Shown here: positions 9,883-56,154 of the stretch, piece by piece
Layout: the number at the start of each line of letters is the position of its first letter
How positions within the stretch are numbered: position 1 is the first letter of the stretch
Assembly: GCA_038203095.1 (NCBI GenBank)
Contig: JBBREH010000001.1
Coordinates: 431 to 64,430 of the forward strand
Direction: 5' to 3'
DNA length: 64,000 bases
From: Candidatus Doudnabacteria bacterium
GTDB lineage: Bacteria > Patescibacteriota > Doudnabacteria > UBA920
Program-made: the position numbers and the translations under genes
The notes under the pieces: model-generated
What the model was told of the DNA's origin: nothing
Databases searched by the model: none
The model's input: the letters and a program-made list of their open reading frames with translations, nothing else

Positions 9883-9896
9883 GGAGGGAAAAAATA

Positions 9897-10462: not shown

Positions 10463-10627
10463 TAGTAAGTTGTAAGGTATGGAAACCAGTTTAGAAAATA
10501 GTAATAGGGTATTGGTTTTAGATACTGTTTGGGTAATAAGTAAACTCTTTTTTAGGACTTAGCCATATTGCTAAATCCTTATAACCATTCTGGCTTCCAC
10601 AACCTATAACTTATAACTGGTAAACTT

Positions 10628-11300: not shown

Positions 11301-11585
11301 ATGAATAAACTACAACTCACTGAACAATTAGCCGCTAAATTGAGCATTACCCACAGCGAAGCCGAAAGGTTTGTAAACACTTTAACCTCTATGGTTTATG
11401 ATGTCCTGCGTGGAGGAGACAAAGTAAACATTTCCGGCTTTGGGCAGTTTTCCGTTTCTCATCGCGCCAGTAGAATTGGCGTTAATCCCAGAAACCCCAG
11501 CCAGAAAATTACCATCCCCGAACTTAACACCCCCAAATTCAAAGCAGGCGAAGCCTTTAAGGAAGCTATTAAGCTGAGGCCGTAA
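11301..11585 (+). CDS. hupB: HU/IHF-family DNA-binding protein
   Basis: GFGQFSV..R.SRIGVNPRNP arm motif; 94 aa. Confidence 0.85.
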   Translation: MNKLQLTEQLAAKLSITHSEAERFVNTLTSMVYDVLRGGDKVNISGFGQFSVSHRASRIGVNPRNPSQKITIPELNTPKFKAGEAFKEAIKLRP

Positions 11586-11616
11586 TAAAAATTGTTAGCT
11601 AAATAAAGAATATCAA

Positions 11617-11647
11617 AAAAGCCTCTTTTCATATGGAGGCTTTTTTG
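11617..11647 (+). terminator. Rho-independent terminator after the HU gene
   Basis: AAAGCCTC...GAGGCTTTTTTG. Confidence 0.7.
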
Positions 11648-11678
11648 TTATAATCCAGCAGGATAAAAAAATATTTTT

Positions 11679-11753
11679 TGCGAGTATCGTATAATGGTTA
11701 TTATCTCAGTTTTCCAAACTGATGATGCGGGTTCGATTCCCGCTACTCGCTCC
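11679..11753 (+). tRNA. tRNA-Gly (anticodon TCC), CCA encoded
   Basis: Acceptor GCGAGTA/TACTCGC; anticodon stem TCAGT/ACTGA with loop TTTCCAA; T-arm GCGGG-TTCGATT-CCCGC. Confidence 0.8.
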
Positions 11754-11993
11754 AGACTTCGCTAAAGCTTCGTTTGGCTTACACCAACAGAAGATTTGTC
11801 GAAGATTGGGTGAATATAAAAATTTAAAAAAAGCGAAGTCTGCGCATAGTAATCTGATCAAGGCGGGCGACAAATATTGAAAATTAAATTACTATCCTTG
11901 TCTGCTTTGGGTCATGTACACCATGTTTGGACTGAACTGTTCTAAGAATGTATAATTTTAATCATTGATAGTTAATATAATAATTTTTAGCGT

Positions 11994-33000: not shown

Positions 33001-33655
33001 CGGCGCGGCTTCCAACTCAATGTGGACTGTCGGTTTGGCCTCGGCTTCTGCCGCGACCATCCGCGGAACCTCTTCCACCGCAACCATTACTCCGACTTTA
33101 ACCGCCAACGCTACTTCTAATACCACAACGGTTCTTAGAACTACTATTGGCGTAGCCTCGGTTGGCTCAATTGCCAGCCCGGTTAGCGTAAGCGTTAGCC
33201 CAACCGGTGTTCCGAGCGCGACGGAAAATATGGCCATCTTTGCGGTTACTGCTTCTAACAGCGGTGACGCAATTGTGCAAAGCATTACTTTGCAACAAGG
33301 TGGTACAGCCCCAACAGGTGTTGCTGTAAACTACACAGTGTTTGACGCCGCTCAAGGCCTCTCCAGCGCTGTGAGTGTAGCTACTGCCATTACTGGTTCT
33401 ACCGCAACTGCGGTTACCCTAAACCTAAACTCCGCTGCCACTGCTGGCGGTGTGACTATTGGCGCAGGTCAAACCAAGTACTTGGTAGTCCAGGCAAACA
33501 CAACCAACTTTAACACCAACAGTGGCAACAGCTCCAAGTCTTACAGCTTGCAAGCTACCACTTGGCGCTTTAGCGACGGTACAACCGGCGTAGGCCCTTC
33601 TAGCGATGCTAGCTCGGTCACCGCAGTTACCACCGGCGCTTCCCGCACATACTAA
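30008..33655 (+). CDS. Very large secreted surface protein (candidate S-layer/adhesin), T/S/A/G/N-rich
   Basis: Signal peptide with AQAAAHA cleavage motif. N-terminal ..F.SWGY modules as in the 14174 protein. About 1000 aa of low-complexity beta-rich repeats. Minus-strand ORFs inside it are composition artefacts. Confidence 0.7.
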   Translation: MQNSVAKKIFAVGSAVAMTLSLVVPFAAQAAAHATGTNVSSSDGTVWMVTSTGTRRAYTSAGAFLSYGFNSWSQVVPASAEDLALPVDSAGFIPPQDGTIFCATATKGSDVKGECALISGGMKRSFTSASVFTGLGFSFARAVNGDSSFMSKGANVDNSTMAHLPGVLVNNNGTVQLVGSNGLLGVPDLATFNSWGYSFANVVPANAADKAMTQTGVMVARLAGQLSPSWTPAQPCTSNCTPPPANGGGLSVSLSSATPAASNVAAGAAFIPFTAINFTAAGNPVVVTGVKVKRGGLGADSNLNNMYLFNGAQMLAQSSSVQNGVVTYSNSAGLFTVPANSTLTIWVKGDLSSGTSSGLTYTFSVNAASDITSNASSVSGSFPITGNMVTSATVVSPSLASLTVAGISTGGTVNAGTNSFLAAQYSLQSANSSVKVNGITLTFVGSAALSSIANVKLMANGTQVGSTMTSLSSTVVFFDLSSAPLMVPTGNTVNLQVIADITGSANRTGNLFSIQRNYDIQSYDTTYNVGILSSSTFPVNGTSFSINAGTLTVNRDVTSRTTQIAPGQTNLTLATFSFQANGEDVKILNLPFKIAGNGSGKLDINNIKLVDNAGFGLGTSDTTEKNVVATPYTNSSGAVNAPGFQQTSNFNYVIPANTTRLISIVADIISSTTSTTATASLTGGSSNAQGVVSVASITTPAVSGNTLTVSTTLLTATLSSGMANPSLVVPNSQSTKVGSFAINAGGADSVDITTVQVTTGATSVAANFNQLAVMVGTTQVGQTQTTLSNSTAYSFSPATAISIPAGGSVTIDVYAGVQSGAETSVNQNVVSLTGLTSQLHTSGSTITFPGLVTGQTVKVTGNGAVTITQSPNTPVSRQLAMNQAGQILGVIKIGETTGNEAATLTDITITATGVAGTTLNGTASASLNSLLNFTISAADNAGTAIGSPVTRSSWTSGTDGTGTVVYTVTFNNVSLAIPAGPGKYMNLTVKADLNSFTNGAASNSMWTVGLASASAATIRGTSSTATITPTLTANATSNTTTVLRTTIGVASVGSIASPVSVSVSPTGVPSATENMAIFAVTASNSGDAIVQSITLQQGGTAPTGVAVNYTVFDAAQGLSSAVSVATAITGSTATAVTLNLNSAATAGGVTIGAGQTKYLVVQANTTNFNTNSGNSSKSYSLQATTWRFSDGTTGVGPSSDASSVTAVTTGASRTY

Positions 33656-33832: not shown

Positions 33833-36079
33833 ATGAGCCAAACATTAGCCAATTTAAAGCTAAATAAAGCGGTGACCAATCTTTTTTTTGGTTTGGTTTT
33901 TTTAAGCTTGGTAGTGCCTTTGGTATTTACCAAACATTTGTTGTATCCGTTTATTTCGACTAAATCTTTGTTGTTAACGGGCGTTATTTTGATAGCTTTG
34001 CCCTGTTACGTTTATTTATTGGCACAAAACAAGAGCATTCGGCCAAATTCAAAAAATCCTATTAGCCTTTTGCTTCTGGTATTTATAACACTCAATTTTA
34101 TTGCCGCGGTATTTGGTGTGAATTTTGGCCGTAGCTTTTGGGGCAACTACGAACGAATGAGCGGGGTGTATTATTCCTTAAATTTACTACTCCTGTATTT
34201 TTATCTGTTTTCAATTTTTCAAATTAGGGAGAACTTAGGCAAAAAGTTTTTGGACGGGGTAATTCTGGTTGCCGGCTTAACATCAGCCTACGCGGTTTTG
34301 GAGCAAAGTGGGATTTTATTTTTTCAGGACGCCTCCTACCCTTCCCGTATTTCCAGCACCTTTGGTAACCCTATATTTTTTGCCAGCTTTTTAATTATCC
34401 CAATATTTTTAAGCGCCTTTTTCGCTGTTGAAGAAAGCGTTAAATGGAAAAAGATTTTTTATTGGGCTTGTTCGGTTTTGGGCATATGGGCAATATTTTT
34501 AAGCAAAACCAGAGGCGCGGAATTTGGCTTAGGCTTAACTTTTGTAGTTTTTGGTTTGATTTTTTTGCTTAATTCTAAAAACAAGCGCTTGCTAAAAGCA
34601 GGGTGGGGGATTTTTGCCGGGTTGGTGTTAGGGGCTGTTTTGCTGTTTAGTTTTCGTAGTCATTTTGATTCCTCTTCAGTCATTGGCCGAGCTTTAACTT
34701 TTAGCGATGGCAATACCAAAGCGCGTCTAATTCAGTGGCAAAGCGGGCTAAAGGGATTTAAAGATCATCCAATTTTAGGAGTTGGGCCGGAGAATTATTA
34801 CGTTATTGCCAATAAATATTTTAATCCGGAAATTTATAAATACGATTCCACTTGGTTTGACAAGCCCCACAATTTTTTACTGGAAGTTTTGCTAACAACG
34901 GGTTTGCTTGGGTTTATGGCTTATATTGGTTTAGTTAGTTTTGTATTTGTCTCGTTTAGAAAAGCGCAGAAGAGTGGTTTAATTTCATTTACTCAGTTTT
35001 GCCTGCTTTCGTCCGCTATGTTTGCTTACCAGGCGCAAAATTTATTTGTCTTTGATACTACCTCAGCAGCCTGGGCATTTTTTATTTTTTTGGCATTTGC
35101 CGGATATTTATGGCAGGCGAGTTTGCCGGAAATTAGTAGTGCCAGCCAAAATCAATCTAAAGTAAACTCTTTGCCGATTTTGCCTCAAGCCCTGCTGGTT
35201 GTTGTTGGTGTGTTGAGTTTTTACGTTTGGTATGTTACCAATTGGGGAACAATTAAAGTTTTATATAATTTAAATATTGCCTATGCCTTAGGTATAAAAA
35301 ATCCCAAAATTACCGCGGAGTATTATGAGCGCGCAGCCGGTCAGCCGTTTGTTTATGATAGGGGAGACATTGGCGTAAAGTATGGCGAGTTTGCGGTGCA
35401 GACGGCACAAGATTTAGGCGCGAGCTTGGAGCCTGGTTTTATTAATCAAACTTTAGATAACGCGGCCAAAGTGCTGGAAAAAACCGTGGCCGGGGTAAAT
35501 AATAACCCCATTTATTGGTATCATTTGGCCAACGATTACAACACAAAAAGTATTTTTAATAAAAGCGCGGTTTTGCCACGGGCTGTGGAGGCGGTAAATA
35601 AAGCCATTGCTTTGGTCCCGACCAGGGTTGAGCCTAAGTTTTTTTTGGTGCAAATTAAAGGTTTGCAAAATGATATTCCCAGCGTGGTAAAAATTTCTGA
35701 AGAAATAGCGGCCGCTGTACCTTGGAACGCGGAAACCAAATGGCGCCTGGCTTTGGCCTATAAAGACGCTAAGCGGCTTGATGACGCTATAGTTCAAGCC
35801 AAGCTTGCTTTAGCCGGTGGGTATAAATTTAAGCTGGTAAAGGAATTTCGTTGGCTAATAAATTATTACGCGGACAAAGAAGACTACCCCCAGGTCGCTT
35901 TACTCTACGAACAGGCTATAGTGCTTTCGCCTAATGATTTCCAGCTCTATGCCAGCTTAGCCACGGTTTATGCTAAACTAGGGGAGAAGGACAAAGCCAT
36001 TTTGGCGGCGCAAAAAGTGGTTGAATTGAACCCGGCTTCTAAAGCTAATGTTGATGCTTTTATAAAATCTTTGCAATAA
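33833..36079 (+). CDS. O-antigen-ligase-domain (Wzy_C) membrane protein with C-terminal TPR repeats
   Basis: LSKTRGAEFG and GVGPENYY motifs in a polytopic N-terminal domain; TPR-like C-terminus. Confidence 0.7.
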   Translation: MSQTLANLKLNKAVTNLFFGLVFLSLVVPLVFTKHLLYPFISTKSLLLTGVILIALPCYVYLLAQNKSIRPNSKNPISLLLLVFITLNFIAAVFGVNFGRSFWGNYERMSGVYYSLNLLLLYFYLFSIFQIRENLGKKFLDGVILVAGLTSAYAVLEQSGILFFQDASYPSRISSTFGNPIFFASFLIIPIFLSAFFAVEESVKWKKIFYWACSVLGIWAIFLSKTRGAEFGLGLTFVVFGLIFLLNSKNKRLLKAGWGIFAGLVLGAVLLFSFRSHFDSSSVIGRALTFSDGNTKARLIQWQSGLKGFKDHPILGVGPENYYVIANKYFNPEIYKYDSTWFDKPHNFLLEVLLTTGLLGFMAYIGLVSFVFVSFRKAQKSGLISFTQFCLLSSAMFAYQAQNLFVFDTTSAAWAFFIFLAFAGYLWQASLPEISSASQNQSKVNSLPILPQALLVVVGVLSFYVWYVTNWGTIKVLYNLNIAYALGIKNPKITAEYYERAAGQPFVYDRGDIGVKYGEFAVQTAQDLGASLEPGFINQTLDNAAKVLEKTVAGVNNNPIYWYHLANDYNTKSIFNKSAVLPRAVEAVNKAIALVPTRVEPKFFLVQIKGLQNDIPSVVKISEEIAAAVPWNAETKWRLALAYKDAKRLDDAIVQAKLALAGGYKFKLVKEFRWLINYYADKEDYPQVALLYEQAIVLSPNDFQLYASLATVYAKLGEKDKAILAAQKVVELNPASKANVDAFIKSLQ

Positions 36080-36096
36080 TAAATTTTAAATAATCT

Positions 36097-38367
36097 ATGC
36101 AAAAAGTTTTCAGGAATATTTTTTTTGTTTTAGTCGCGTTGTCGGTAACGGCTGCGTTTTGGGTGTCCAAGGAATTTTTATTTCCTTTTGTCACCACCAA
36201 AGCCTTCTTTTTTCGTATTTGTATTGAACTGGCACTACCGTTTTACGTTTATTTTTTGGTGTCGGACAAAAAACTTAGGCCAAATTTAAGAAATCCGCTG
36301 TCTTTGGCTGTGCTGGCCTTTCTGGCGGTTAATGTTGCCTCGGCTTTTTTTGGGGCGAGCGTGGTGCGCAGCTTTTGGGGGAACTTTGAACGTATGGGCG
36401 GCGTGTTTTATTTGGGTCATTTGGCGGCTTTATATTTTTACGTTTTGGCTATGGGTCAAATGCCCGGCGACTACATACGCAAGTTTTTAAAGGTAATGCT
36501 TTTGGTCGCGGCGGTAATTACTTTAAACGGTATTTTTGGCTGGCTGAATTTACCGACCCTGGTGGCCGATCCATCTTTGCCTGCTAGAGTCTCAAGCACT
36601 TTGGGTAACCCAATTTATTTAGGTAGTTATTTAATTATCCCATTATTTTTGGCATTATTTTTTACCTTTCAGGCCAAAAATAAATTAGACAAAGCCGTAT
36701 ATTATTTTTTAGCTTTAGCTTTTGCCTGGGGAATTTTTTTAAGCAACACGCGCGGAGCCTTAGTTGGGCTGATTGCCGGAGCCTTTATTTGCGCGATTGT
36801 TTATTTGGCATTAAATCCGAATAAGAAAATTAAACAATATGGTTTTATAATTTTTGGCATTTTGGCGACCTTGGTGTTTATGATGTTTATTTATAGCAGT
36901 AAGCTGCCTAAGAGCGTAGAAAGAATTTTTACGCTCAAAGACAGCAACACTTTGGCGCGTTTAATTCAGTGGAAAATCGCTCTGTCAGGCTACAAAGACC
37001 GGCCGCTACTTGGCACAGGGCCGGAAAATTATTACGTAATTGCCAACCAATACTACCGCCCCGAACTGGCGCAGTACGACCGCAGTTGGTTTGACAAGCC
37101 CCATAATTACATTTTGGAAATTTTGGTAACTAACGGCATTTTAGGATTAATCTCCTATTTGGCAATTTTAGGCTTTATAATAACGGCGCTGTATAAAGGC
37201 TACAAAGCAGAGTTTTATGGTTTGGAGGAATTTTGTTTGTTGCTCGGGGCACTGTTTTCATATCAGGTTCAAAATTTGACCGTGTTTGATACCGTGCCGG
37301 CCAGCTTAATGTTTTATGGTTTTATGGGTTTTGCCGGTTACGTTTGGACAATTTCCCAAACTTCGTTAGTTGAGGTTAAAGCAAAAGAAGCTTTGCCGGT
37401 TTTTAACATTCGGCCGCTGGCATTTTCGGCATTGGGTGTAACTTTTTTATTAATGGCTTATACAATTTACGCCACGGAAATTATTCCAATGCAAATTGCC
37501 AAAAATGTTAACTACGGCTTTGCTTACGCCTCGGTGGACCCGGCCAAAGCTTTTGAATACTTTCAAGTTGCCACATCTTTACCGTTTAATTTTGACAAAA
37601 CCGAAACCGCCAGCAAGTTTGACGAGTTCGCGGCCAATTACGCCCGCAGTGCCGGGCAAAAGGACCAGACCAGGGCGCTTGCAATTCTAGACTCGGCCAG
37701 TGCGTTTACCCAAGAGGCTTTGGCTACCCAGCCCGATTATCCCATTTTGTGGCAGCGAATGTCAGGCCTATATTTATTTCGGTCGGTTCAAATAGGCGGG
37801 AAAGTGGTTGTTGACCCCAGAGCCGAAGAAGCGGCTCAAAAGGCTATTAGTTTAGCCCCCAAAAGGGAAGAGGGGTATTTGGCCTTAGCTCAAATTCGCG
37901 CGCTTCAGGGCGACAACAAGACAGCTAAAGATTTGTTAGCTCAAGCTATGGAAAATTTTCCGGCCGATGCCGGCGTTAAAGTTCAGTTAGCCAATATGTA
38001 CCGGCTTGAGGGTCAAACCGAAAAAGCCGTGGCACTAATGGAGCAGGCAGTTAAGCAGGGTTATGGTTTTAGCAGTTTTGGGGAAATTGAATGGCTTTCC
38101 AATTATTACGTTGGGCTTAAAGAGTACGATAGAGCTATGGATTTGCTTGTGTTAGGACAAAAACTGGAGCCTAACAACTTGCTGGTATTTATAGATTTAG
38201 CCAAGCTCTACGCCGTTTCGGGCAAAAATGATTTGGCCAAAAATTTAGCGGAAAATATTATGAAGTTCGACGCCTCCCGCGCAAAAGAAATGCAAGCGCT
38301 AATAAATTCCTTGCCAAAATCGGGACAAGTTGCCGGAACTGCCAGCGGGACGCCGGCAGGGAAATAG
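36097..38367 (+). CDS. O-antigen-ligase-domain (Wzy_C) membrane protein with C-terminal TPR repeats (paralog)
   Basis: Same architecture as the previous gene: LSNTRGALVG and GTGPENYY motifs; TPR C-terminus. Confidence 0.7.
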   Translation: MQKVFRNIFFVLVALSVTAAFWVSKEFLFPFVTTKAFFFRICIELALPFYVYFLVSDKKLRPNLRNPLSLAVLAFLAVNVASAFFGASVVRSFWGNFERMGGVFYLGHLAALYFYVLAMGQMPGDYIRKFLKVMLLVAAVITLNGIFGWLNLPTLVADPSLPARVSSTLGNPIYLGSYLIIPLFLALFFTFQAKNKLDKAVYYFLALAFAWGIFLSNTRGALVGLIAGAFICAIVYLALNPNKKIKQYGFIIFGILATLVFMMFIYSSKLPKSVERIFTLKDSNTLARLIQWKIALSGYKDRPLLGTGPENYYVIANQYYRPELAQYDRSWFDKPHNYILEILVTNGILGLISYLAILGFIITALYKGYKAEFYGLEEFCLLLGALFSYQVQNLTVFDTVPASLMFYGFMGFAGYVWTISQTSLVEVKAKEALPVFNIRPLAFSALGVTFLLMAYTIYATEIIPMQIAKNVNYGFAYASVDPAKAFEYFQVATSLPFNFDKTETASKFDEFAANYARSAGQKDQTRALAILDSASAFTQEALATQPDYPILWQRMSGLYLFRSVQIGGKVVVDPRAEEAAQKAISLAPKREEGYLALAQIRALQGDNKTAKDLLAQAMENFPADAGVKVQLANMYRLEGQTEKAVALMEQAVKQGYGFSSFGEIEWLSNYYVGLKEYDRAMDLLVLGQKLEPNNLLVFIDLAKLYAVSGKNDLAKNLAENIMKFDASRAKEMQALINSLPKSGQVAGTASGTPAGK

Positions 38368-40059: not shown

Positions 40060-42873
40060 ATGAAAATATTAAAACAGAATCATTATTATATTTTATTTGC
40101 TTCCTTGACTTTATTTGTTCTATTTCCACCCAAAGTCTCGGCAAGCAGTGTTTATTTTGCCCAGAATAACTCTACCGGCAATGTGTTTTATGAATATATT
40201 TATTTAGCGCATAACGGACATAGCTACCAAGGCGATGACAGCTCCGGTCATTCATTTGGATCCGATTTTGCAGATTATATAGCCAACTTTGCTAATGGGT
40301 CTGACTACCCTATTGCCACAACCTCCGTGACTTCCTATGTCACGGATATTATTTTGCAAATTAAAGATACTAACCTCACAGAGAACGCTGATTATGCCAT
40401 TCAGTTTGACTGTATTGGATTTGACGGTTCCTATCTCGGTGCTTTCCATTCCGCATATGTAAATTCCTCAGCTTTTTCTGATGATTTTGTTTCAGTAGAT
40501 TTCCCTTTTTCCGGCATAAACTGCGATTTAAGCAAATATCAAATACATCAAATTGTTGAGTATAGGGGCGGTCAGTCGGTTGTGCAAACTGCTATTCGAG
40601 TCCGAGCCCAAAATACTAATTCGTTAAATGGGTACGGCCTGTCCAATGATAATGGTACTATTATTGATGATTACGAACCACAGATGGTTATTAAAAGCGG
40701 ACCGCTGGTGGCAAAAACTCCGGTGTTGATTGTGCCAGGGACTTTGGGAACAGAAATAGATAAAGGTGCCGATATTCTTTGGCCAAATATAGATAAGATG
40801 TTCTCGGTGAGTCCGATTCACTCCGATGATTTTATGGATCCGTTGGCTTTTAACCAAGATGGCAGTCCTTTGAATGCAAGTTTGAGCTTAGGGCAGGTAC
40901 TAACAGTCTCAGTTCAAGCTTTTAATTATTCTCAAAAACTTCTTGAAGATTTTATTTCCCAGGGATATGCTACCGATACCAACTTGTCCCTTTTTCCCTA
41001 CGACTGGCGCGATGACATTGCTAAAAACGCAAATACTGTTTTAAGTCAAAAAATAGATCAACTGATAGCTTCTTCCGGCTCATCCAAAATTGATATTATT
41101 GCGCATAGCCAGGGCGGGTTGCTCATAAAAAAATTATTACTTGACCATCCCGAATACCAGACGAAAATTAATAAGTTAGTTTTTGTAGGTACGCCCAATT
41201 TAGGCTCGCCGAAATCTTTAAAGGTATTGATCTATGGCGATGATTTTGGTATTAAAAAATATGGTTTAGGGCTCGACCCGCTTGAAATAAAAAAAATTTC
41301 CCAAAACATGCCTTCGGTTTATCAAATGCTGCCCAGTCGGGAATATTTTAACCATTCCTCAGGTTATTTGGGGCAATATACTTTTAACTTGGATTCTAAA
41401 TCTGGCAAGATTCTCCCTACTTTTGACGAAACAAAAAATATCCTCAAAACACCTTTTTATAATTTAAACAGCAGTTTGGTTGACAGCGCCGACACTTTTC
41501 ATTCATCAGCCTTTGATAACTTTGACTTTAGCAATACCGGCATTAAGACTTTTAACATTATGGGTTGTAAATCTGCCACCATTGGTAAAATGTTTATTAA
41601 TGGAACTGGCGGAAAAGATGATATTACTTACGAGCCGGGGGATGGCACGGTGCCTTTAATTTCGGCCAGTAATATTAACGGAGCGCAGAATTTTTATGTT
41701 ACTAAAACTGGGGACATCCATGGAACTATGTTAACAACGGATGGAGTGCGTCAAAAAATAGTAAATATTATTGCCGATACCAACATTCCAACCTCCGGCC
41801 TTATTACCTCAAATCCCGCGCTTTGCGTGTTTAAAGGGAAGAAAGTAGAAGTCCATAGCCCCGTGGATTTGAATATTTACGATGAGAATAACAACCACGT
41901 TGGTCCCAACCCAGACGGCAGTTTTGACTATCAAATAGAAGGCGTGCAGTATGATGAAATTGGTCATAATAAATATGCTTTTCTGCCTGATGACGGACAT
42001 ATTTATACGCTTAAGTTAAACGCCACCGGCATGGGAAGTTTTAATTTTTATTCTTCAAGTGTAAACGGCAGTCAAACAGATAATATTGCTTATTATAGTG
42101 ATGTACTTATTGCTTCTTCTTCCACAGCCCAAGTAATCCTAAATTCTGATAACAATCAAACAATTGATTTTACCAGCGACAGCAGAACAATTGCTCCTTC
42201 CTCAATTTTAGACGCCAATCAGTCCCTTGACCCCATCTCTCCCATTTCAACCTCCACCATAACCGGTAGTTTAACTAGTCCTGGGGTTTACACTGGCAGT
42301 GTTAGTATCAGCTTGTTAGCAACTGATCCTGTTATTGTTGGCAAGGAGAACCAGACATCGGCAGTGCTTAAAACCCAATATGGTCTTGATGGGGGAGGCT
42401 ATCAAACTTACAGCACCACATCGCCGGTTAGCGTATCATCCGAAGGCCAACATAGCATAACCTTCTTCTCCACTGACCGTGCAGGTAACAATGAGCCGGA
42501 GCAGACGGTTAGTTTTGCCATCATAAAGCAGGTTGTTTCATCAGGCGACGGGGGCGGGGGAGGAGGGCCATCACAATTTAATACACCTTTTTACTTCATT
42601 ACAACACCCACAACCGCAGGCCGGGTTTTGGGCACCAGCACAACGGCTTCCATAGTTAATCCCCTAATTAGCCAGTTGCCGCCACAGCCCCAGCTCCGCC
42701 ATAAGGAAGGTAGCTTAATTGTGGACGCTAGAGGTACAGTTTACCTGGTTCAAAAGCAGTTGCTTCGTCCATTTACTTCAGCCAAACGTTTTTTGTTTTT
42801 AAAATTCAAGTTCAAAAATGTCAGCCCTATGTTAGAAGGTGACAGTGGTTATTTTTTGGGGATGCCGATGTGA
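40060..42873 (+). CDS. Large secreted alpha/beta-hydrolase (lipase/esterase-like) protein
   Basis: Signal peptide; nucleophile-elbow motif AHSQGG; long C-terminal extension with a Gly-run. Confidence 0.6.
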   Translation: MKILKQNHYYILFASLTLFVLFPPKVSASSVYFAQNNSTGNVFYEYIYLAHNGHSYQGDDSSGHSFGSDFADYIANFANGSDYPIATTSVTSYVTDIILQIKDTNLTENADYAIQFDCIGFDGSYLGAFHSAYVNSSAFSDDFVSVDFPFSGINCDLSKYQIHQIVEYRGGQSVVQTAIRVRAQNTNSLNGYGLSNDNGTIIDDYEPQMVIKSGPLVAKTPVLIVPGTLGTEIDKGADILWPNIDKMFSVSPIHSDDFMDPLAFNQDGSPLNASLSLGQVLTVSVQAFNYSQKLLEDFISQGYATDTNLSLFPYDWRDDIAKNANTVLSQKIDQLIASSGSSKIDIIAHSQGGLLIKKLLLDHPEYQTKINKLVFVGTPNLGSPKSLKVLIYGDDFGIKKYGLGLDPLEIKKISQNMPSVYQMLPSREYFNHSSGYLGQYTFNLDSKSGKILPTFDETKNILKTPFYNLNSSLVDSADTFHSSAFDNFDFSNTGIKTFNIMGCKSATIGKMFINGTGGKDDITYEPGDGTVPLISASNINGAQNFYVTKTGDIHGTMLTTDGVRQKIVNIIADTNIPTSGLITSNPALCVFKGKKVEVHSPVDLNIYDENNNHVGPNPDGSFDYQIEGVQYDEIGHNKYAFLPDDGHIYTLKLNATGMGSFNFYSSSVNGSQTDNIAYYSDVLIASSSTAQVILNSDNNQTIDFTSDSRTIAPSSILDANQSLDPISPISTSTITGSLTSPGVYTGSVSISLLATDPVIVGKENQTSAVLKTQYGLDGGGYQTYSTTSPVSVSSEGQHSITFFSTDRAGNNEPEQTVSFAIIKQVVSSGDGGGGGGPSQFNTPFYFITTPTTAGRVLGTSTTASIVNPLISQLPPQPQLRHKEGSLIVDARGTVYLVQKQLLRPFTSAKRFLFLKFKFKNVSPMLEGDSGYFLGMPM

Positions 42874-44105: not shown

Positions 44106-46157
44106 ATGTCAAGCAAAAAGATTGCGCTCATTACCGGTATTACGGGCCAAGATGGCTCATATTTGGCGGAATTTTTATTGGCCAAAGGTTACGAGGTTCA
44201 CGGAATTATCCGTCGTGCTAGCGTATTTAATACCGAACGCATTGAACAAATTTATCAGGATCCTAACCTGCCGCACAGACAGTTATTTTTGCATTACGGC
44301 GATTTAGCCGACGCTTCAAATTTAAACCAGTTGCTTAAAAAAATTCAGCCTACAGAAATTTATAATTTGGGTGCGCAAAGTCACGTAAAAGTGAGTTTTG
44401 AAATTCCGGAATATACCGCCAATATTGACGCTTTGGGAACTTTAAGGTTGCTAGATGCCATCAGGGAAAATAAAATTGCCACCAAGTTTTACCAGGCGGG
44501 TTCCAGCGAAATGTTTGGCGATGTTCTACAAACACCCCAGTCGGAAAAGACGCCTTTTAATCCGGCCAGTCCTTACGGCGCGGCAAAAGTTTTTTCCCAT
44601 CATATTTGCAAAAATTATCGCGAGGCTTACGGAATGTTTATTTGCAACGGCATTTTATTTAATCACGAATGCTTAACAGCCCAAACCCCTTTGGTAATTA
44701 GAAAGAATGGGCTTTTAGATATTGCCGCAATAGAAGAAATAGTTCCTCATAGAGAAAATCCAAAACACGGAATTAAATACACAACAGTTGCCGATAAAGA
44801 GTTAGAAGTTTGGGATGGGGGTAAGTGGACAGCAATAAAAATACTAACAGCAACTTGGAATGAGTCCGGTTCTAAAAATGACAAAAAGCTCAAAAGAGTG
44901 ATTAGTAGGGGGGCTTACTATGAGGCCACAAGCGATCATATTTCATTTTTGGAAGGAGGGCGGGAAATCAAGACTGTCGATTTGTTCAAGGGAAACTGTT
45001 TGGAGCTAAAAAAGTTACCTGCTTTAACTAATATTATGTCTCTTACCTTAGAAGAAGCGGAATTTTTGGGTATGATGGCAGGCGATGGGTATATCAGTCA
45101 AGAAGGCAAAGGTAGATTTATAAATAATAATAAGTCATTACGAGAACGGATTGTTAAATTGTGGCAACAGATTGCGGGAGGCTTTAGCAGGGAAGGTGAA
45201 CATCCAAGCGGGTTCGTAAAGGGCAAAAACGTAAAATCAATAGAGTTGGCGGGCAATCCTCGTTATTTGCGTTATATATGGAGCGAACTTTACAATGAGA
45301 AATTGTTTAAAAAAGTTCCTGGCAGAGTTTTAAATAGTAATATTCAGGTTATGAGAGCCTTTTTAAGGGGCTACAACCTATGCGACGGTCTTAAAGCCGG
45401 CAAGCAAAGAACAGAGTTTAAGTCTTTTACAACCAATTCTGCGGTGTTGGCGTCTGGTTTGTGGTGGCTGCTAGATCAAGCAATGGGTTTAAGAATTACT
45501 CTGCACCCAGAATTTAGAAAGGATAAATTGTATTTTCATTTGAATATAAATACTGACAAGGTTACTTTAAAAGGCAAGCATCTCAAGAAGAAAATAAATG
45601 AAATTAAAGATGTAAAAGATTTTAAGTATACGGGATGGTTGTTTGACCTTGAAACAGAAAGTGGGACTTTTTCGGCGGGGGTAGGGTTATCATGGGTGCA
45701 TAATTCCCCAAGGCGCGGTAAAACTTTTGTGACGCGCAAAATTACTACAGGCATTGCGTCTATTTTGGCCGGAAAAACCAAGAAGATTTACCTGGGAAAT
45801 TTAAACGCCAAGCGGGATTGGGGTTTTGCGCCTGAGTACATAGAGGCTATGTGGCTAATGTTGCAGCAAAATAAGCCGGATGATTACGTAATTGCCACGG
45901 GCGAAACCCATTCAATTAAAGAATTTTTAGATATTGCTTTTAAGCTCGTGGGAATTAAAGACTGGAAAAAATACATTGGTATTGACCCAAAATATTATCG
46001 TCCTCAGGAGGTTAATCTTTTGCTCGGCGACGCCGGCAAAGCCAAAAAAAAGTTAGGCTGGAAACCCAAGGTGAAATTTAAAGAGTTGGTTAAAATAATG
46101 TTGGAAGCGGATTTAAAAGAAATCGGCCTAAGCCCGGCAAAATATATTAAAGTATGA
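44106..46157 (+). CDS. gmd: GDP-mannose 4,6-dehydratase interrupted by an intein (precursor 683 aa)
   Basis: Exteins are collinear with Gmd ([17 protein letters not shown]...ILFNHE | [14 protein letters not shown]...). A 345-aa insertion lies between E188 and S534. Confidence 0.85.
44670..45704 (+). other. Intein with LAGLIDADG homing-endonuclease domain inside gmd
   Basis: Begins with Cys (CLTAQTPLV), TxxH block (TSDH), two LAGLIDADG-like motifs ([26 protein letters not shown]), ends ...GVGLSWVHN followed by +1 Ser. Confidence 0.8.
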
Positions 46158-47947: not shown

Positions 47948-48952
47948 GTGATAAAATTATCTTATTATATGTCTAGATTAAAGCAAAAAACCGCGTTAGT
48001 TTGCGGCGCCGGCGGGTTTATTGGTGGGCATTTGGTTAAGCGCCTGAAGGCCGAAGGCTATTGGGTGAGAGGAGCGGACTTAAAGAGTCCCGAGTTTGAA
48101 GTCACTGCTGCCGATGATTTTATGCTTGTAGATTTAAGGGACGACACTTCGTGGCTTAAAATTTTAGACCGGCCTTTTGACGAAGTCTACCAGCTGGCAG
48201 CGGATATGGGAGGCGCTGGCTATATTTTTACCGGCGAGCACGACGCGGACGTTATGCACAATTCGGCAAGTATTAATTTAAACGCGATTCATTACGGGCA
48301 AAAAGCCGGCACTAAAAAGATTTTTTATTCCTCGTCCGCGTGTATTTATCCGGAATATAACCAAATGGATCCGGCCAACCCAAAATGCGACGAAGTTTCC
48401 GCCTATCCGGCTCAGCCCGATAGCGAGTATGGCTGGGAAAAATTATTCAGCGAGCGGCTCTATTTATCGTACATGCGTAATTACAAGATGGACGTAAAGA
48501 TAGCGCGCTTCCATAATATTTTTGGTCCCCAGGGTACTTATGAAGGGGGTAAGGAAAAAGCTCCGGCCGCCATATGTAGAAAGGTCGCGCAAAGTCCGGA
48601 CGGGGGAGAGATTGAAATTTGGGGTGATGGTTTGCAGACGCGCTCGTTTTTATACATAGACGAATGCCTGGAAGGAGTAAGAAGGTTAATGGAATCGGAT
48701 TTTGCCGGCCCGGTTAACATTGGCTCGGAAGAAATGGTGACTATTAATCAGCTTGCAGAAATGGCAATGGCAATTGCAGGCAAAAAGCTTCATCTCAAGC
48801 ACATAAAAGGTCCGCTCGGTGTGCGGGGCAGAAATTCCGACAATGATTTAATTAAATCTAAAATCGACTGGGCGCCCGGCGCGCCACTTAAAGACGGCTT
48901 AACCAAAACTTACCAATGGATAAAACAGCAAGTCAACCAGAGCGAGGCCTAA
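47948..48952 (+). CDS. NAD-dependent epimerase/dehydratase family protein
   Basis: GAGGFIGGHL Rossmann motif and YxxxK. Confidence 0.7.
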   Translation: MIKLSYYMSRLKQKTALVCGAGGFIGGHLVKRLKAEGYWVRGADLKSPEFEVTAADDFMLVDLRDDTSWLKILDRPFDEVYQLAADMGGAGYIFTGEHDADVMHNSASINLNAIHYGQKAGTKKIFYSSSACIYPEYNQMDPANPKCDEVSAYPAQPDSEYGWEKLFSERLYLSYMRNYKMDVKIARFHNIFGPQGTYEGGKEKAPAAICRKVAQSPDGGEIEIWGDGLQTRSFLYIDECLEGVRRLMESDFAGPVNIGSEEMVTINQLAEMAMAIAGKKLHLKHIKGPLGVRGRNSDNDLIKSKIDWAPGAPLKDGLTKTYQWIKQQVNQSEA

Positions 48953-49854
48953 TTATTGTCCGTCTGTTAGGCGGGCTTGGCAACCAAATGTTCCAGTATG
49001 CACTGGGCCGCAGCCTGTCAATTTTGCATAAACGTGAAATGAGACTAGATTTGGATTTTTATAAAAACCAGAATTCCAAATGGGCTTTAAGGACTTATGC
49101 GCTAGACCATTTTAACATTCATCCGCGTGTTGCGGGTCAAAACGAACTTAGGCCGTTCCAAAAATATTTACAGCCTAAGATTTTTAGCAAATTTTTGCGC
49201 AGAGCCAGTGTAGTAGTGCCTTTTGCGGCTAAATCTTACATTTTTGAACCATTGGGCCAAAATTTTACATTCGACGAACATCTATTAACCGCAAAATTTA
49301 AGATGAAAGTTTACTTGGATGGTTTTTGGCAAACGGAAAAATATTTTAAGCCAATAGAAGATATAATCAGGAAAGATTTTGAATTTGCTGAACAACCCGA
49401 TGCAGTTAATCAGAGGATGCTAAATGAAATTGAAAATCAAACCTCAGTTGCTATCCATATACGCCACGGCGATAACGCAACTAAAATTGCAAGCCATCAC
49501 GGGGTTTTGCCAATTAGTTATTATCAAAAAGCTGTTAAAGAGTTAATCGAAACCATCAACAATCCTTATTTTTACATTTTTTCCGACGATCCGGCATGGG
49601 CAAAAGAAAATTTAAAATTAAACCACCCTTCGGTTTTTGTCAGCCATAATGGCGAAGAAAAGCATTACGAAGATTTACGTTTGATGTCGCGTTGTAAACA
49701 TCATATTATAGGTAACAGCACTTTTAGCTGGTGGGGGGCTTGGCTTGGTAAAAAGACCGGTCAGCAGGTTTACGTGCCGAGTCGCTATCATATGAATACC
49801 AATATTAGCATGGGGAATTTGTATCCAAAAGACTGGAAATTAATCAAGGTATAA
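48916..49854 (+). CDS. GT11-family alpha-1,2-fucosyltransferase
   Basis: Hallmark GGLGNQMFQYA motif; start overlaps the upstream gene. Confidence 0.8.
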   Translation: MDKTASQPERGLIIVRLLGGLGNQMFQYALGRSLSILHKREMRLDLDFYKNQNSKWALRTYALDHFNIHPRVAGQNELRPFQKYLQPKIFSKFLRRASVVVPFAAKSYIFEPLGQNFTFDEHLLTAKFKMKVYLDGFWQTEKYFKPIEDIIRKDFEFAEQPDAVNQRMLNEIENQTSVAIHIRHGDNATKIASHHGVLPISYYQKAVKELIETINNPYFYIFSDDPAWAKENLKLNHPSVFVSHNGEEKHYEDLRLMSRCKHHIIGNSTFSWWGAWLGKKTGQQVYVPSRYHMNTNISMGNLYPKDWKLIKV

Positions 49855-49860: not shown

Positions 49861-50796
49861 ATGCTTAATTTAAAGATAGTAAAAATTTTACTCACCGGCG
49901 GGCATGGATTTTTGGGCGCACAGGTTTATGAACAGTTAATGAAAGAAGGAGCTCAGGCCAAAAATATTAGCCGACCGCGCTCCAAGGTTTTGGATTTGCG
50001 TCGATCGGAAAACGCGGCCAAAGCGGTAAAGGGTCGAGATTTGGTTATTCATTTGGCAGCCAGCGTGGGCGGGATTGGTTATAACCGCGAGCATCCCGGA
50101 AAGTTGTTTTATGATAGCGCGATAATGGGATTAAATTTGATTGAAGCGGCAAGGCTGGCCGGCGTTAAAAAATTCGTTCAAGTTGGCACGGTTTGCGCCT
50201 ACCCAAAACTTACCCCGGTTCCGTTTAAAGAAAAAGATTTATGGAATGGCTATCCCGAAGAAACCAATGCGCCTTATGGATTAGCAAAAAAAATACTTTT
50301 GGTTCAGCTTCAGGCTTATAGACAAGAGTATGATTTTAACGGGATTTATTTACTTCCCGTAAATTTATACGGCCCGGGTGACAATTTTAATCCCGACTCT
50401 TCCCACGTTATTCCGGCGCTTATAAAAAAGTTTGTGGAAGCGGTAAAAAACTATCAGCCCGAAGTTGTTGTTTGGGGTACGGGCAAAGCCAGTCGGGAAT
50501 TTTTATACGTTGACGACGCGGCGCGGGGGATAGTGCTAGCCGCGCAAAAGTATAATAAAAGCGAACCCGTAAATTTGGGTGCGCATTTTGAAATTAAAAT
50601 TAAGCAGCTGGTTCCGATTATTGCAAAACTGACAGGCTTTAATGGAAGAATTGTTTGGGATAAAACTAAACCGGACGGCCAACCCCGAAGAAAACTAGAC
50701 GTTTCGCGGGCAAAAAAGGAATTTAATTTTATTTCCCGAGTCAATTTTGAGGAAGGCCTTAAAAAAACGGTTGATTGGTATAAAGCAACGCGTTGA
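49861..50796 (+). CDS. fcl: GDP-L-fucose synthase (GDP-4-keto-6-deoxymannose 3,5-epimerase/4-reductase)
   Basis: VGTVCAYPK...NAPYGLAKK...[13 protein letters not shown] pattern typical of Fcl/WcaG. Confidence 0.8.
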
Positions 50797-52784: not shown

Positions 52785-53486
52785 ATGGAAAATATTAAAT
52801 TAACGGTATTTATACCGGCATATAAAGAAGCTGATAATTTAAAGGTTCTCTTGCCGAGGCTGGTTAAGACGTTGTCCCAAGTAGAGCCTAATTACGAAGT
52901 TCTGGTTGTGGACACAATGGAGCCGATGGACGGCGCTAAAGCAGTCTGCGAGTCAGCCAGCGGGAACGTAGTCTATGCAAACAGAACCGGCGGCAATAAT
53001 TTTGGCGATGCCGTCAGAACCGGCATTTTATTGGCGAGGGGACAATATTTTATCGGAATGGATGGCGACGGTTCGCACGCGCCGGAGTTTATTAAACAAC
53101 TTTACGCGCAAAAGGACAAATTCGACGTAGTTATTGCCTCCCGCTATATTGACGGGGGAGGTACGGAAAATTCCAAAGCCTTAATTGCCATGAGCCAGAT
53201 TGTAAATTTAATCTATTCCTTGGTTTTAAATTTGAATTGCAAAGACGTTTCCAACAGTTTTAAGCTGTATAAAACCTCTGCTTTACAACAGCTCAAGCTG
53301 AAATCAGATAATTTTGACATTGTGGAAGAAATTTTATTTAAACTTAAAAAAGCCAATTCTAATTTAAGCATAAAAGAGCTGCCGTTTACTTTTAAAACAA
53401 GGATGTTTGGCGAAACCAAAAGGAATTTATTTATTTTTATTTTTACGTATCTTTATACACTAATCAAACTACGATTTGAAAAATAA
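52785..53486 (+). CDS. GT2 glycosyltransferase (Dpm1-like)
   Basis: LTVFIPAYKE...VLVVD...GMDGDGSH motifs. Confidence 0.7.
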   Translation: MENIKLTVFIPAYKEADNLKVLLPRLVKTLSQVEPNYEVLVVDTMEPMDGAKAVCESASGNVVYANRTGGNNFGDAVRTGILLARGQYFIGMDGDGSHAPEFIKQLYAQKDKFDVVIASRYIDGGGTENSKALIAMSQIVNLIYSLVLNLNCKDVSNSFKLYKTSALQQLKLKSDNFDIVEEILFKLKKANSNLSIKELPFTFKTRMFGETKRNLFIFIFTYLYTLIKLRFEK

Positions 53487-56154
53487 AATTTTAGGCGCCT
53501 TAATTCAAGGTAAAAAAATAATATCCAGGCATTATTTACAGTTTTTAAGTGTAGGGGGTTTGTTATTTGGCGTGCTTTGGCTAGGTTATACTATAAGAGT
53601 GGTGGGTAGTCGGGAAATTAGCGATCCAGTTATGGTTGTTATTCAGGCTAAAAATAACCAGCAGTTAGCCAGCCAGCCAGCGACTAAATTAGCCCACGCC
53701 GGCAATGTTGTCTTTTTTACACCCAAAAAAACCCAAATAAATACTTGGGCGATTAGCACGGTATTTATTGAAAAGTTGTTTTTTGTGGTAAAAAAAGACG
53801 AGTTGCCAAATATTGACTCCATCCGATTATCCATTGGGCAAAAAGATTTTAATATTAGCAGCACTGATTTGGTAAATTGGCGGCTTGATAATCCCGAGCA
53901 ACAAAGCGCTTACTTTGAGTACGACAAAACCACTGAATATATTGCCGGACTACCCGCGACCATGTATTCTTCGGTCTCCCGCCTGCCTTTTTCTAAAAAG
54001 GTTTTTGGCAATGTTATTAATTGGGGAGGGGACGGGAAGTTGGTTTTAAATCCTTTAATATCAGGAGCAAAGCTTTTTATTTTGGTAATTACGGCGTTAT
54101 TCTTGTATTTCTTCCTTTTTTTATTGCTTTTTCCAAGAAGCCCAGATGAGCCTGACGTGCTGCCTGAGCGGGAGCAAAGAATTGACTTTTTATCTTTTGT
54201 TTTGAGCCTTGCATTAACCCTTGTTGCTTTATTCGTTTTAAGCGTACTCATAAAAATATTTTACAAGCCCGATATTAACATAATTATAAACCAGGCTCGC
54301 GAGTTGTATTTGCCTAACCTGATTGGCAGTTTTGTACCAAAACCGGTAGAAAGAATGCAGTTTGTCCTAAGTGTTTTGGCCACGCCGTTTTTATTGCTCG
54401 GGTTTTATTGCTCGGTGAAGTCTTGGTTAAAAAATTGGGCCGAGTCGACGGTGAGTAAGTTGTATCAAGTTGCGGTTCCGTTTTCCGTGCTATTTATTTT
54501 TGTCATGGTTTTTTGGGGTCTGGCTATGAGCGATTTTTTATACATCCAAAACAGTTATTTTATAAGTCAGTGGGGTAAATATGTTTACGCTTTTTTGCTA
54601 TTTCCGTTGCTGTTATGGGCTTGTTTTTCATATGAAAGCAATTCATATTTAAAAAAAATAATTTCCATTCTGCCTTATATTTTTGTAGTGTTAATAATTT
54701 TTACGGCCTTTTGCTTAAATATTTTTAGCGCCAACAATATACCTGGCGGGCCTTATCATTTTAATCCGATTTTTTATCCCATTGCCCAGATTTTTGGGGG
54801 CAAAACCCTGTTGGTTGGTTTTGGTAGTTTGTACGGCTTATTTCCGATTTTTTTGAATTTTATTTTTAAAATAATTGGTTTTTCAGTATTTAAGATAGCG
54901 GCGGTTATGGGTTTTCTTATCGCCTTGTCGTATTTAGCCTTATTTATTTTTTTAAAAAATACAATCAAAAATAAATTAGTTTTATTGGGCGGTATTTGCA
55001 GCGTATTCTTCTTTTCGTACATAAACCTTCCCCAGGTATATTTTCAGTATTGGCCTATCCGTTTTTTTCCGGCTTGTATTTTTATACTCGCTGTATCCCT
55101 GTTTATTAAAAATGGAAATAATAAATTTTTTTATTATTTAGGTTTTGCCTGGAGTTTTATTGCCGTGCTTTGGAATTTAGAGACGGGCATAGTACTACTC
55201 ACGTCATGGGCGTTAATTTTGGCATACTGTGATTTTTCTCAAGTTAGGGGGATGGCTTTTATGAAAAAAAGCATCGGGCATTTGGCAGTTGGCTTAGGCT
55301 TTTTGCTTTTTAGCGCAGTTGGGCTATATTTTTATACTTATTTAAGAAGCGGAGCTTATCCGGACCTAACTATTTTTTACAAGTATCAAAAATTATTTTT
55401 TTCGGGTTATTTTATGATCCCGATGCTCCCCCCACCGCATATTTGGGCGGTAATTATTTTTACTTATTTAGCAGGGTTGCTTTATTCACTTAAATCATTA
55501 TTTGTTTTTCAGAGTGATGAAAAAAGTAAAATTATTTTTTTTCTTTCAATTTTGGGAATTGGTCTATTTAGCTATTATGAGGGCCGGTCGCATGATGCGA
55601 CATTGGTAGGCCCTTCTTACGTCGCAGTTTTATTATTTACAATTTTTGCCGACAGCTTGCTGGCTTTGGTAAAACGACATGTCCAACCAATGGCTAATAT
55701 GGCAGCATTAATACTGCTGTTGTTTTTGCTATTTGCGGGCCCCGTTAGTCTGATTTCCAATGTTCCGAGGCTCGCCACTATAATACGCGCAAATTTTAGT
55801 TCCCTGCCTATGGCAGATTCGGACATAGCCCGCAATATTACTTTTATAAAGCAATATTCCTCTAAGACAGAAAAAATATTTATTATTTCTTCAAATTATG
55901 ATGGGGTGTATTACACGGAAACAGGTACTGTTTCGGCGCCTGACCTGCCGTCATCAACGGAATATTTTTCAAAAAAAGAAGTTGGTTATATAATTAACTT
56001 TCTGAAGCAAAATACCTCAACAAAAGTATTTTATGATGTAAAAAATCCACTTGTTTTTGGCGAAGAGATAGTTTTAACCTTAAAGACATATTACAATACA
56101 AAACAAGTTAGCGGCGGGGGGCTTGTACTTTTGGAAAAAATAAGCCAAAAATAA
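53476..56154 (+). CDS. Large polytopic membrane protein, candidate GT-C-type glycosyltransferase
   Basis: 892 aa with more than 15 predicted TM helices, directly downstream of a Dpm1-like GT2. Confidence 0.45.
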   Translation: MKNKILGALIQGKKIISRHYLQFLSVGGLLFGVLWLGYTIRVVGSREISDPVMVVIQAKNNQQLASQPATKLAHAGNVVFFTPKKTQINTWAISTVFIEKLFFVVKKDELPNIDSIRLSIGQKDFNISSTDLVNWRLDNPEQQSAYFEYDKTTEYIAGLPATMYSSVSRLPFSKKVFGNVINWGGDGKLVLNPLISGAKLFILVITALFLYFFLFLLLFPRSPDEPDVLPEREQRIDFLSFVLSLALTLVALFVLSVLIKIFYKPDINIIINQARELYLPNLIGSFVPKPVERMQFVLSVLATPFLLLGFYCSVKSWLKNWAESTVSKLYQVAVPFSVLFIFVMVFWGLAMSDFLYIQNSYFISQWGKYVYAFLLFPLLLWACFSYESNSYLKKIISILPYIFVVLIIFTAFCLNIFSANNIPGGPYHFNPIFYPIAQIFGGKTLLVGFGSLYGLFPIFLNFIFKIIGFSVFKIAAVMGFLIALSYLALFIFLKNTIKNKLVLLGGICSVFFFSYINLPQVYFQYWPIRFFPACIFILAVSLFIKNGNNKFFYYLGFAWSFIAVLWNLETGIVLLTSWALILAYCDFSQVRGMAFMKKSIGHLAVGLGFLLFSAVGLYFYTYLRSGAYPDLTIFYKYQKLFFSGYFMIPMLPPPHIWAVIIFTYLAGLLYSLKSLFVFQSDEKSKIIFFLSILGIGLFSYYEGRSHDATLVGPSYVAVLLFTIFADSLLALVKRHVQPMANMAALILLLFLLFAGPVSLISNVPRLATIIRANFSSLPMADSDIARNITFIKQYSSKTEKIFIISSNYDGVYYTETGTVSAPDLPSSTEYFSKKEVGYIINFLKQNTSTKVFYDVKNPLVFGEEIVLTLKTYYNTKQVSGGGLVLLEKISQK

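Follow-up and report, generated by a model that had tools for sequence, protein, structure and literature searches.

A probable class-1 intein with an embedded LAGLIDADG endonuclease domain in the GDP-mannose 4,6-dehydratase gene of a Candidatus Doudnabacteria bacterium

We analysed a stretch of 64,000 nt (in the following called the window) from contig JBBREH010000001.1 of a Candidatus Doudnabacteria bacterium. On its forward strand, at positions 44106–46157, lies gmd, the gene of GDP-mannose 4,6-dehydratase (Gmd), which is interrupted by an in-frame insert of 345 codons. We consider it very likely that this insert is a class-1 intein of the canonical type that contains a LAGLIDADG homing endonuclease with two motifs and is placed in frame between Glu188 and Ser189 of Gmd.

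The open reading frame (ORF) for the precursor, consisting of N-extein, intein and C-extein, encodes 683 amino acids followed by the stop codon and is open over all codons. The N-extein (44106–44669) encodes Gmd residues 1–188, corresponds to Gmd profile positions 1–196/198 and ends with the motif NGILFNHE. The intein follows directly (44670–45704), reaching from Cys1 to His344-Asn345. By its homologues, profile and fold, it is a Hint domain that is interrupted by a LAGLIDADG domain. In the precursor it occupies residues 189–533, such that ILFNHE runs up to residue 188 and SPRRG starts from residue 534. The C-extein (45705–46157) encodes residues 189–338 of the spliced Gmd and the stop codon; its first residue is Ser+1, with the codon tcc at 45705–45707. 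At the DNA level, the 5′ junction reads aat cac gaa | tgc tta aca and the 3′ junction gtg cat aat | tcc cca agg cgc ggt, with the His-Asn codons at 45699–45704. Without the insert, the junction DNA would be GGCATTTTATTTAATCACGAA|TCCCCAAGGCGCGGTAAAACT. In the ORF, the insert coordinates and the length of 345 amino acids, our analysis agrees exactly with the original prediction made for this locus from the sequence. The features listed there for the insert, a Cys start, the TSDH block, two LAGLIDADG motifs, an HN end and Ser+1, are all present in the translation. The GC content stays at 0.37–0.43 across both intein junctions without a shift. A compositional mark of recent acquisition was not found, the GC content being equal within and outside the intein; the GC skew is higher within the intein, in keeping with its amino acid composition.

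The assignment of the host protein follows from the exteins. Their concatenation of 338 amino acids gave one match to the gmd model TIGR01472, covering positions 1–341/342 with 537 bits (E 1e-161; cutoff 415), and one match to PF16363 over its positions 1–332/332. With the unexcised precursor, both models matched in two stretches each (524 bits for TIGR01472, E 7e-138 for PF16363). The original prediction had described the ORF as collinear with Gmd apart from the insert and had proposed aligning the joined exteins to Gmd family profiles as a check. This view holds, as excision yields one continuous, full-length match to either model. Using the extein-only sequence as query, we compared the best 120 database homologues, which are 331–353 amino acids long and share 76–87% identity with it; where named, they belong to Patescibacteria / Candidatus Doudnabacteria. 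All 120 lack an intein and carry an uninterrupted NHES(P/E)RRG segment, and in 81 of these nearest intein-less Gmds the 17 residues restored at the junction, CNGILFNHE|SPRRGKTF, are identical.

The exteins also contain the motifs characteristic of Gmd: GITGQDG (GxxGxxG, NADP-binding), GIIRR (GxxRR), S133-S-E135, Y157-GAA-K161 and R192. The spacing of S133-x-E135, Y157-xxx-K161 and R192 is the same as in BceN of Burkholderia. R192 is the second Arg of SPRRG and, by its spacing from the catalytic residues, the counterpart of BceN Arg190, which has been described as essential to orient GDP-mannose and NADP+ (PMC3584063). The intein junction lies four residues ahead of R192, within the most conserved stretch of Gmd, which confirms the earlier suggestion of an insertion into a conserved substrate-binding segment. 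By its equivalog-level profile match and its catalytic sequence motifs, the host protein is a GDP-mannose 4,6-dehydratase.

To characterize the insert, we searched with it alone against 5.8 billion proteins. This search retrieved 34 proteins, and all 34 are Gmd proteins. Fifteen of them have both junctions; their inteins were excised and aligned together with the window intein (alignment A1). Searched against the PDB, the profile from A1 matched the V-ATPase intein 7qsu (3e-14), in an alignment that extends through blocks F and G, followed by PI-PkoII (2cw7, 5.5e-9), the TFIIB mini-intein 5o9i (1.5e-4, residues 3–124), the N-terminal splicing region of the NrdJ-1 intein 8ubs (5e-3, residues 8–112) and PI-SceI (0.05). 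From the same alignment we obtained an AlphaFold (AF2) model of the intein with a predicted local distance difference test score (pLDDT) of 88.5 and a predicted template modelling score (pTM) of 0.89; a single-sequence run reached a pLDDT of 35 and was unusable. When the AF2 model was compared to the PDB by Foldseek, the top matches were the TliVMA and PhoVMA inteins (6e-19 to 3e-17), next came PI-PkoII, PI-PfuI and PI-SceI (1e-15 to 1e-9), and mini-inteins were found as well, namely VidaL (2e-4), MchDnaB-1 (2e-3), Ssp DnaB (4e-3), TvoVMA (1e-2) and also Mtu RecA. According to the model, the splicing domain has the horseshoe-shaped Hint fold and is split by the LAGLIDADG domain. The Hint splicing domain of the original prediction is thus upheld by the family profile against PDB inteins and by the fold matches of the AlphaFold model.

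Class-1 splicing is defined by the residues in blocks A, B, F and G and at position +1 (PMC7765530). We inspected these positions across 96 alleles of the intein. The block A nucleophile is Cys1 in the window (tgc, 44670–44672), and all of the 96 alleles start with Cys (75), Ser (11) or Thr (10). The TxxH motif of block B is T87-S-D-H90 (44928–44939); its Thr is present in 95/96 and its His in 96/96 alleles, and both are invariant in A1. Blocks F and G (WLFD326...His344-Asn345, 45636–45704) could be aligned to the corresponding blocks of the TliVMA intein. Asp326 of block F and the terminal Asn345 occur in 96/96 alleles each, and the penultimate His344 in 73/96, the other alleles having Ser, Ala or Gly there. 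Ser+1 is found at 78 of 79 genome loci. Class-3 inteins need no N-terminal nucleophile and are recognized by a Trp-Cys-Thr triad whose Cys occupies position 4 of block F (PMC7765530). We rejected a class-3 assignment, as the window intein starts with Cys1 and has Asp326 instead of Cys at this position of block F. With all sequence and fold features of this class in place, the insert is probably a splicing-competent class-1 intein.

The second component, the LAGLIDADG homing endonuclease domain, extends approximately over intein residues 116–300 (45015–45569). The Pfam model PF14528 (LAGLIDADG_3) matched the insert in two stretches with 29.8 bits (cutoff 22.5). In a phmmer search of the PDB, intein residues 127–307 aligned with the endonuclease region of the Thermococcus V-ATPase intein 7qsu (2e-5). 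Among free-standing LAGLIDADG enzymes, Foldseek matched the model to I-SceI (5e-6), I-Tsp061I (5e-5) and I-DmoI (1e-4), and the modelled secondary structure of residues 127–293 would fit two alpha-beta-beta-alpha-beta-beta-alpha repeats, as in the pseudo-dimer fold of these enzymes. With the profile score and the fold matches to I-SceI and I-DmoI, the LAGLIDADG endonuclease proposed earlier is supported. Motif 1 is FLGMMAGD139GYIS (intein residues 132–143, 45063–45098) and motif 2 is FLRGYNLCD239G (residues 231–240, 45360–45389). The acidic residue of each motif is kept in 95/96 alleles (D or E at position 139; D239, which is also invariant in A1), and each is followed by Gly (G140, in 96/96, and G240).

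From the conserved residues and the established class-1 pathway, we infer the following sequence of events. Translation would yield the 683-amino-acid precursor, in which Cys1 would undergo an N-S acyl shift, aided by Thr87, His90 and Asp326, to form a thioester at Glu(-1)-Cys1. Attack of Ser+1 on this thioester would create a branched intermediate, and cyclisation of Asn345, aided by His344, would free the intein of 345 amino acids (~40 kDa). A final O-N shift would leave the joined exteins as a Gmd of 338 amino acids (~38 kDa) with the native ILFNHE-SPRRG active-site segment. The spliced Gmd would then supply the neighbouring genes for a GDP-fucose synthase-like protein and a GT11 glycosyltransferase, described below. 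The endonuclease of the free intein, in turn, is predicted to cut an intein-less gmd at the junction, and repair would copy the intein in (homing).

We then asked how widespread this element is. By scanning one genome per GTDB species, we found 199 genomes that encode a relative, and fetched 80 of these loci. In 78 of the 80, gmd carries the insert, in frame and precisely at NHE|...N|S(P/E)RRG (in the following called site b); the remaining two loci are cut by contig ends. The members of this site-b family share 35–83% identity with the window intein, and have the insertion codon and the blocks in common. The hosts are mainly Solirubrobacterales (Actinomycetota) and Thermoleophilia, and the inteins of the Solirubrobacterales are ~36% identical to that of the window. 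Others belong to Chloroflexota, Acidobacteriota, Myxococcota, Gemmatimonadota, Armatimonadota, Planctomycetota, Methylomirabilales, Competibacter and Aerophobetes, and one is another Candidatus Doudnabacteria metagenome-assembled genome (MAG; JBBRWU010000025.1). The latter carries the closest allele, L002, with an intein 83% identical to that of the window. An exhaustive search with a hidden Markov model (HMM) of 1.84 billion cluster representatives (clustered at 50% identity) yielded 4939 clusters with E ≤ 1e-3, 204 of them with E ≤ 1e-30. Among the best 150 clusters, at least 75 match the Gmd exteins of the window (phmmer, E ≤ 1e-5), while others include family-B DNA polymerases. In the viral contigs of IMG/VR we found 34 matches, and at least 18 of them are inteins that interrupt Gmd at site b, some on contigs of giant-virus MAGs. 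The family also includes degenerate forms: P0034 is a mini-intein of 165 amino acids at the same Gmd site that has lost the endonuclease, and P0077 has LAGLIDADG motifs without the acidic residues.

Several variants within this family deserve mention. One subgroup has Thr at position 1 (NHE|T[LIV]A.FMP...) and is longer, with 362–450 amino acids. It comprises L092–L101, which are IMG/VR contigs with a GC content of 0.21–0.37, three of them giant-virus MAGs, and the cluster representatives P0064, P0074, P0078, P0088, P0101, P0122, P0125, P0133 and P0168. Among the fetched loci, Thr1 inteins occur on AT-rich viral contigs only. Thr1 is permitted in inteins according to reviews, yet rare among characterised ones. 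A speculative reading, to which we give a low probability although it is less radical than the regulatory role discussed below, would be that this Gmd intein allele passes between large DNA viruses and bacteria from many phyla, with the viruses as its carriers and the Thr1 variants as its viral form.

A second variant ends with ISN instead of VHN, that is, with Ser as the penultimate residue. It accounts for 20 of 79 bacterial alleles, 11 of which also have Ser1 instead of Cys1. These alleles come from Solirubrobacterales (L010, L018, L020, L022, L034, L035, L037, L041, L043, L044, L054, L056, L062, L069, L072, L076 and L078–L081). From the sequences, this pattern looks like a co-varying shift of both splice junctions in one actinobacterial clade.

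Two proteins, P0050 (1087 amino acids) and P0077 (1043 amino acids), contain two inteins, one at NHE|S and another at YQA(G/S)|SSE. This second site is located directly ahead of the catalytic Ser/Thr-x-Glu, and the intein in it is detected by the Pfam Intein_splicing model. In gmd of the window, the second site (YQAG|SSE, at ~44494–44511, KFYQAG|SSEMFG) is uninterrupted. The site-b intein in the metagenomic protein P0025 (478 amino acids) is unusual in having helix-turn-helix (HTH) domains (PF02796 HTH_7 and PF01381 HTH_3) inserted after the LAGLIDADG domain. In L001/L055 (Thermoleophilaceae MAG, contig_19638, 3670–5680), L074 and L079, all from long-read MAGs, the N-extein is interrupted, which could be due to a homopolymer sequencing error or to real pseudogenisation. 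We had also suspected a second insertion in the N-terminally truncated P0013 and P0019; it was dismissed, as L001 shows a split gene call or frameshift with overlapping products of 112 and 559 amino acids.

To address mobility and selection, we compared the window locus to its relatives. In a neighbour-joining tree, the window intein groups first with L002 and then with the inteins of Aerophobetes, Gemmatimonadota and three viral contigs, whereas the large clade from actinobacteria stands separately. The L002 exteins are 82–83% identical to those of the window, and some relatives with an empty site are closer (87%). The empty sites, the mini-intein and this mixed clade fit a homing cycle as judged from the sequences, and homing would explain the sporadic spread across phyla and viruses. 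Between the window and L002, the proportions of non-synonymous (pN) and synonymous (pS) change are 0.068 and 0.703 for the N-terminal Hint part, 0.106 and 0.731 for the endonuclease, 0.028 and 0.604 for the C-terminal Hint part, and 0.114 and 0.726 for the C-extein, where the synonymous sites are saturated and a dN/dS ratio is therefore rough. This comparison indicates purifying selection in every part measured. Because non-synonymous change is low against the saturated synonymous sites, the endonuclease is maintained as a protein and is not in decay.

Besides this saturation, several observations weigh against the proposed reading of the insert as an active, homing intein. The Pfam Hint and Intein_splicing models did not match the insert at E ≤ 1, and two site-b Gmd inteins, P0035 and P0036, gave no Intein_splicing match at E ≤ 1e-5 either. 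The original prediction had named a failure of the insert in Hint and LAGLIDADG profile searches as evidence against it; formally, half of this failure occurred, with the Pfam Hint models, whereas PF14528 scored above its cutoff. We attribute the miss to a lack of sensitivity of the Pfam Hint models, because the profile search against the PDB and the fold search were strongly positive. Furthermore, the block F His of many inteins is absent, with Gly/Thr aligned to the His of TliVMA. This His is not universal among inteins. Pro+2 is unusual beside a C-terminal junction, yet it is kept in nearly all alleles. Finally, intein and exteins have diverged equally from L002 (83% versus 82–83%), as co-inheritance predicts. 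Within this lineage, the intein is, by this comparison, co-inherited with the gene and bears no sign of a recent invasion.

This equal divergence leaves appreciable weight, although clearly less than for a homing element, to an intein that is still competent for splicing but inherited only vertically, its endonuclease no longer homing because it is inactive or kept for structure or DNA binding. In line with this, we encountered no near-identical intein in distantly related hosts, and the mini-intein P0034 and P0077 without its acidic residues show that members of the family do degenerate. On the other hand, both LAGLIDADG acidic residues are present here as in 95/96 alleles, purifying selection on the endonuclease is as strong as on the C-extein, and the patchy spread among relatives, phyla and viruses demands repeated gain. 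We therefore prefer the intein with a maintained, presumably homing endonuclease.

It seems unlikely to us that the intein is more than a selfish passenger and conditionally switches GDP-fucose synthesis at the post-translational level. Such a role would draw on the position of the insert: because the intein splits Gmd four residues before Arg192, no active Gmd would exist before splicing. If splicing at Cys1 responded to the redox state or to another cue of host association, a Patescibacteria (candidate phyla radiation, CPR) cell with its reduced genome could gate a fucosylated surface glycan in this way.

We regard it as improbable that the insertion is dead and does not splice, leaving either an inactive, interrupted Gmd (effectively a pseudogene) or a Gmd that tolerates a large domain. 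The missing Pfam Hint match and the interrupted N-exteins in some related alleles from long-read MAGs would be compatible with it. However, the 683 codons are open and every splicing residue is intact, exteins and intein are under strong purifying selection, and the clustered GDP-fucose-synthase-like and GT11 genes need the product of Gmd. An unspliced enzyme is also unlikely to work, since the insert parts the S/E/Y/K catalytic residues from the Arg192 segment.

Far less probable still is another Hint element that cleaves instead of splicing, be it of the bacterial intein-like (BIL) or of the Hedgehog-type autoprocessing kind. A BIL domain (2lwy) does appear among the weak fold matches (E 0.049), but true inteins match better in fold and profile by many orders of magnitude. 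BIL domains contain no embedded homing endonuclease, reside in variable parts of proteins that are not conserved and often secreted, and usually lack a +1 nucleophile, whereas the insert has a LAGLIDADG domain, Ser+1 and a C-terminal His-Asn and is located in the most conserved segment of Gmd. A chimera of gmd with an unrelated intein or endonuclease gene, created by assembly or binning, is possible in principle, as the window probably stems from a metagenome-assembled genome, but we found no support for it and consider its probability negligible, given the same codon, frame and architecture in 78 independent assemblies and at least 18 viral contigs and the uniform GC content over the junctions.

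The gene neighbourhood provides context outside of the intein. The gmd gene belongs to a surface-glycan cluster with genes for a GT4 glycosyltransferase, an EEP-family protein, a STELLO-like glycosyltransferase, a GT11 protein, a GDP-fucose-synthase-like protein, two Wzy_C proteins and a Wzx-like flippase. The gene of the GT11 family, a fucosyltransferase family, is located at 48916–49854 (forward strand; PF01531 Glyco_transf_11, E 2e-30). The GDP-L-fucose-synthase-like gene follows at 49861–50796 (forward strand), and its product matched NF047922 over the full profile length with 262 bits, below the equivalog cutoff of 500. Both proteins would use the product of spliced Gmd, and the surface-glycan cluster would depend on it.

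Elsewhere in the window, two tandem paralogues at 33833–38367 (forward strand; 748 and 756 amino acids) combine an O-antigen-ligase-like Wzy_C domain with C-terminal TPR repeats. Immediately upstream of the glycan cluster, a gene at 40060–42873 (forward strand) encodes a protein of 937 amino acids that starts with a signal-like segment and contains a lipase/acyltransferase domain of the LCAT type (PF02450) as well as a poly-Gly stretch. Towards the 3′ end of this gene, the GC content increases to 0.52. Four large ORFs on the forward strand, at 30008–33655, 53476–56154, 14174–16294 and 20375–22084 (1215, 892, 706 and 569 amino acids, respectively), had no Pfam match at E ≤ 1e-5 and are typical orphan proteins of Patescibacteria-like genomes. 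Downstream of a chaperonin Cpn60/TCP-1 gene (6438–8099), a region of ~3.5 kb (8100–11680) contains no ORF of at least 150 amino acids, the ORFs on either strand being short. A tRNA-Gly gene (11680–11754) marks the end of this region, and a search of Rfam at gathering thresholds returned only this tRNA.

For genome annotation, the locus should be described as an intein-containing gmd, neither as a fusion gene for 683 amino acids nor as two genes. Automated intein surveys probably under-count Gmd site-b alleles, because the Pfam Intein_splicing model misses this allele family. Inteins in metabolic proteins, as opposed to those for replication, recombination and repair, are a minority, to which the Gmd intein adds a well-populated allele. 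The family offers natural variation in catalytic residues, with Cys1, Ser1 or Thr1 at the start and His, Ser, Ala or Gly at the penultimate position, and it includes all stages of the homing cycle, from full inteins over a mini-intein to empty sites, with a possible route between bacteria and viruses. If active, this compact intein of 345 amino acids, with its Glu(-1) / Ser(+1)-Pro(+2) junction, could be useful for protein engineering. The general understanding of inteins is not changed by it.

We found no published description of an intein in Gmd, within a partial coverage of the literature. Four further papers (PMC11467894, PMC8778642, PMC11953307 and PMC3542560) have no bearing on a Gmd intein. 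The main text of the 2016 survey by Novikova et al. (PMC4760082) does not list Gmd among the hosts; its only sugar-nucleotide enzyme is the archaeal UDP-glucose/GDP-mannose dehydrogenase (UDP-GlcDH), with inteins from euryarchaea. The UDP-GlcDH inteins are a precedent in nucleotide-sugar metabolism outside of replication proteins. UDP-GlcDH is an unrelated COG1004 dehydrogenase, whereas Gmd is of the short-chain dehydrogenase/reductase (SDR) type. The earlier statement that Gmd is not a classical intein host thus agrees with the literature searched, but it needs to be qualified, since the allele is common in databases, with 199 GTDB species encoding a relative.

Among characterised inteins, the archaeal V-ATPase subunit A inteins TliVMA and PhoVMA (7qss, 7qsu and 7qst) are, judged by the model, the nearest relatives of the Gmd intein and its best match in both sequence and fold. 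As in the Gmd intein, their Hint domain consists of two parts with a double-motif LAGLIDADG domain between them, and blocks F and G can be aligned (YDITTETHNF..HN in TliVMA). They differ in host protein, insertion site and domain of life, in the block F His of TliVMA that is Gly/Thr in the Gmd intein, and in length (~430 versus 345 amino acids), with 17–18% identity in the structural alignment. PI-SceI (yeast VMA1), PI-PfuI and PI-PkoII have the same architecture and fold, and class-1 splicing and LAGLIDADG homing are established for them. They are only 11–13% identical to the Gmd intein and larger (454–537 amino acids), with extra DNA-recognition regions, and their activities have been measured, whereas the Gmd intein is described here from sequence and model. 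The inteins of family-B DNA polymerases (P0061, P0071 and P0138, the non-Gmd hosts checked among the best 150 clusters) are related to the Gmd intein (E ~1e-65 to 1e-42) but occupy another host and site and, unlike the site-b Gmd inteins, are detected by Pfam Intein_splicing. Within its own family, the window intein represents the canonical form, Cys1...HN, as opposed to the Ser1/SN and the viral Thr1 subgroups. Apart from its unusual host gene, it is an ordinary intein. The same insertion is widespread in public genomes, and we see in the present case a clean example of its kind rather than a surprise.

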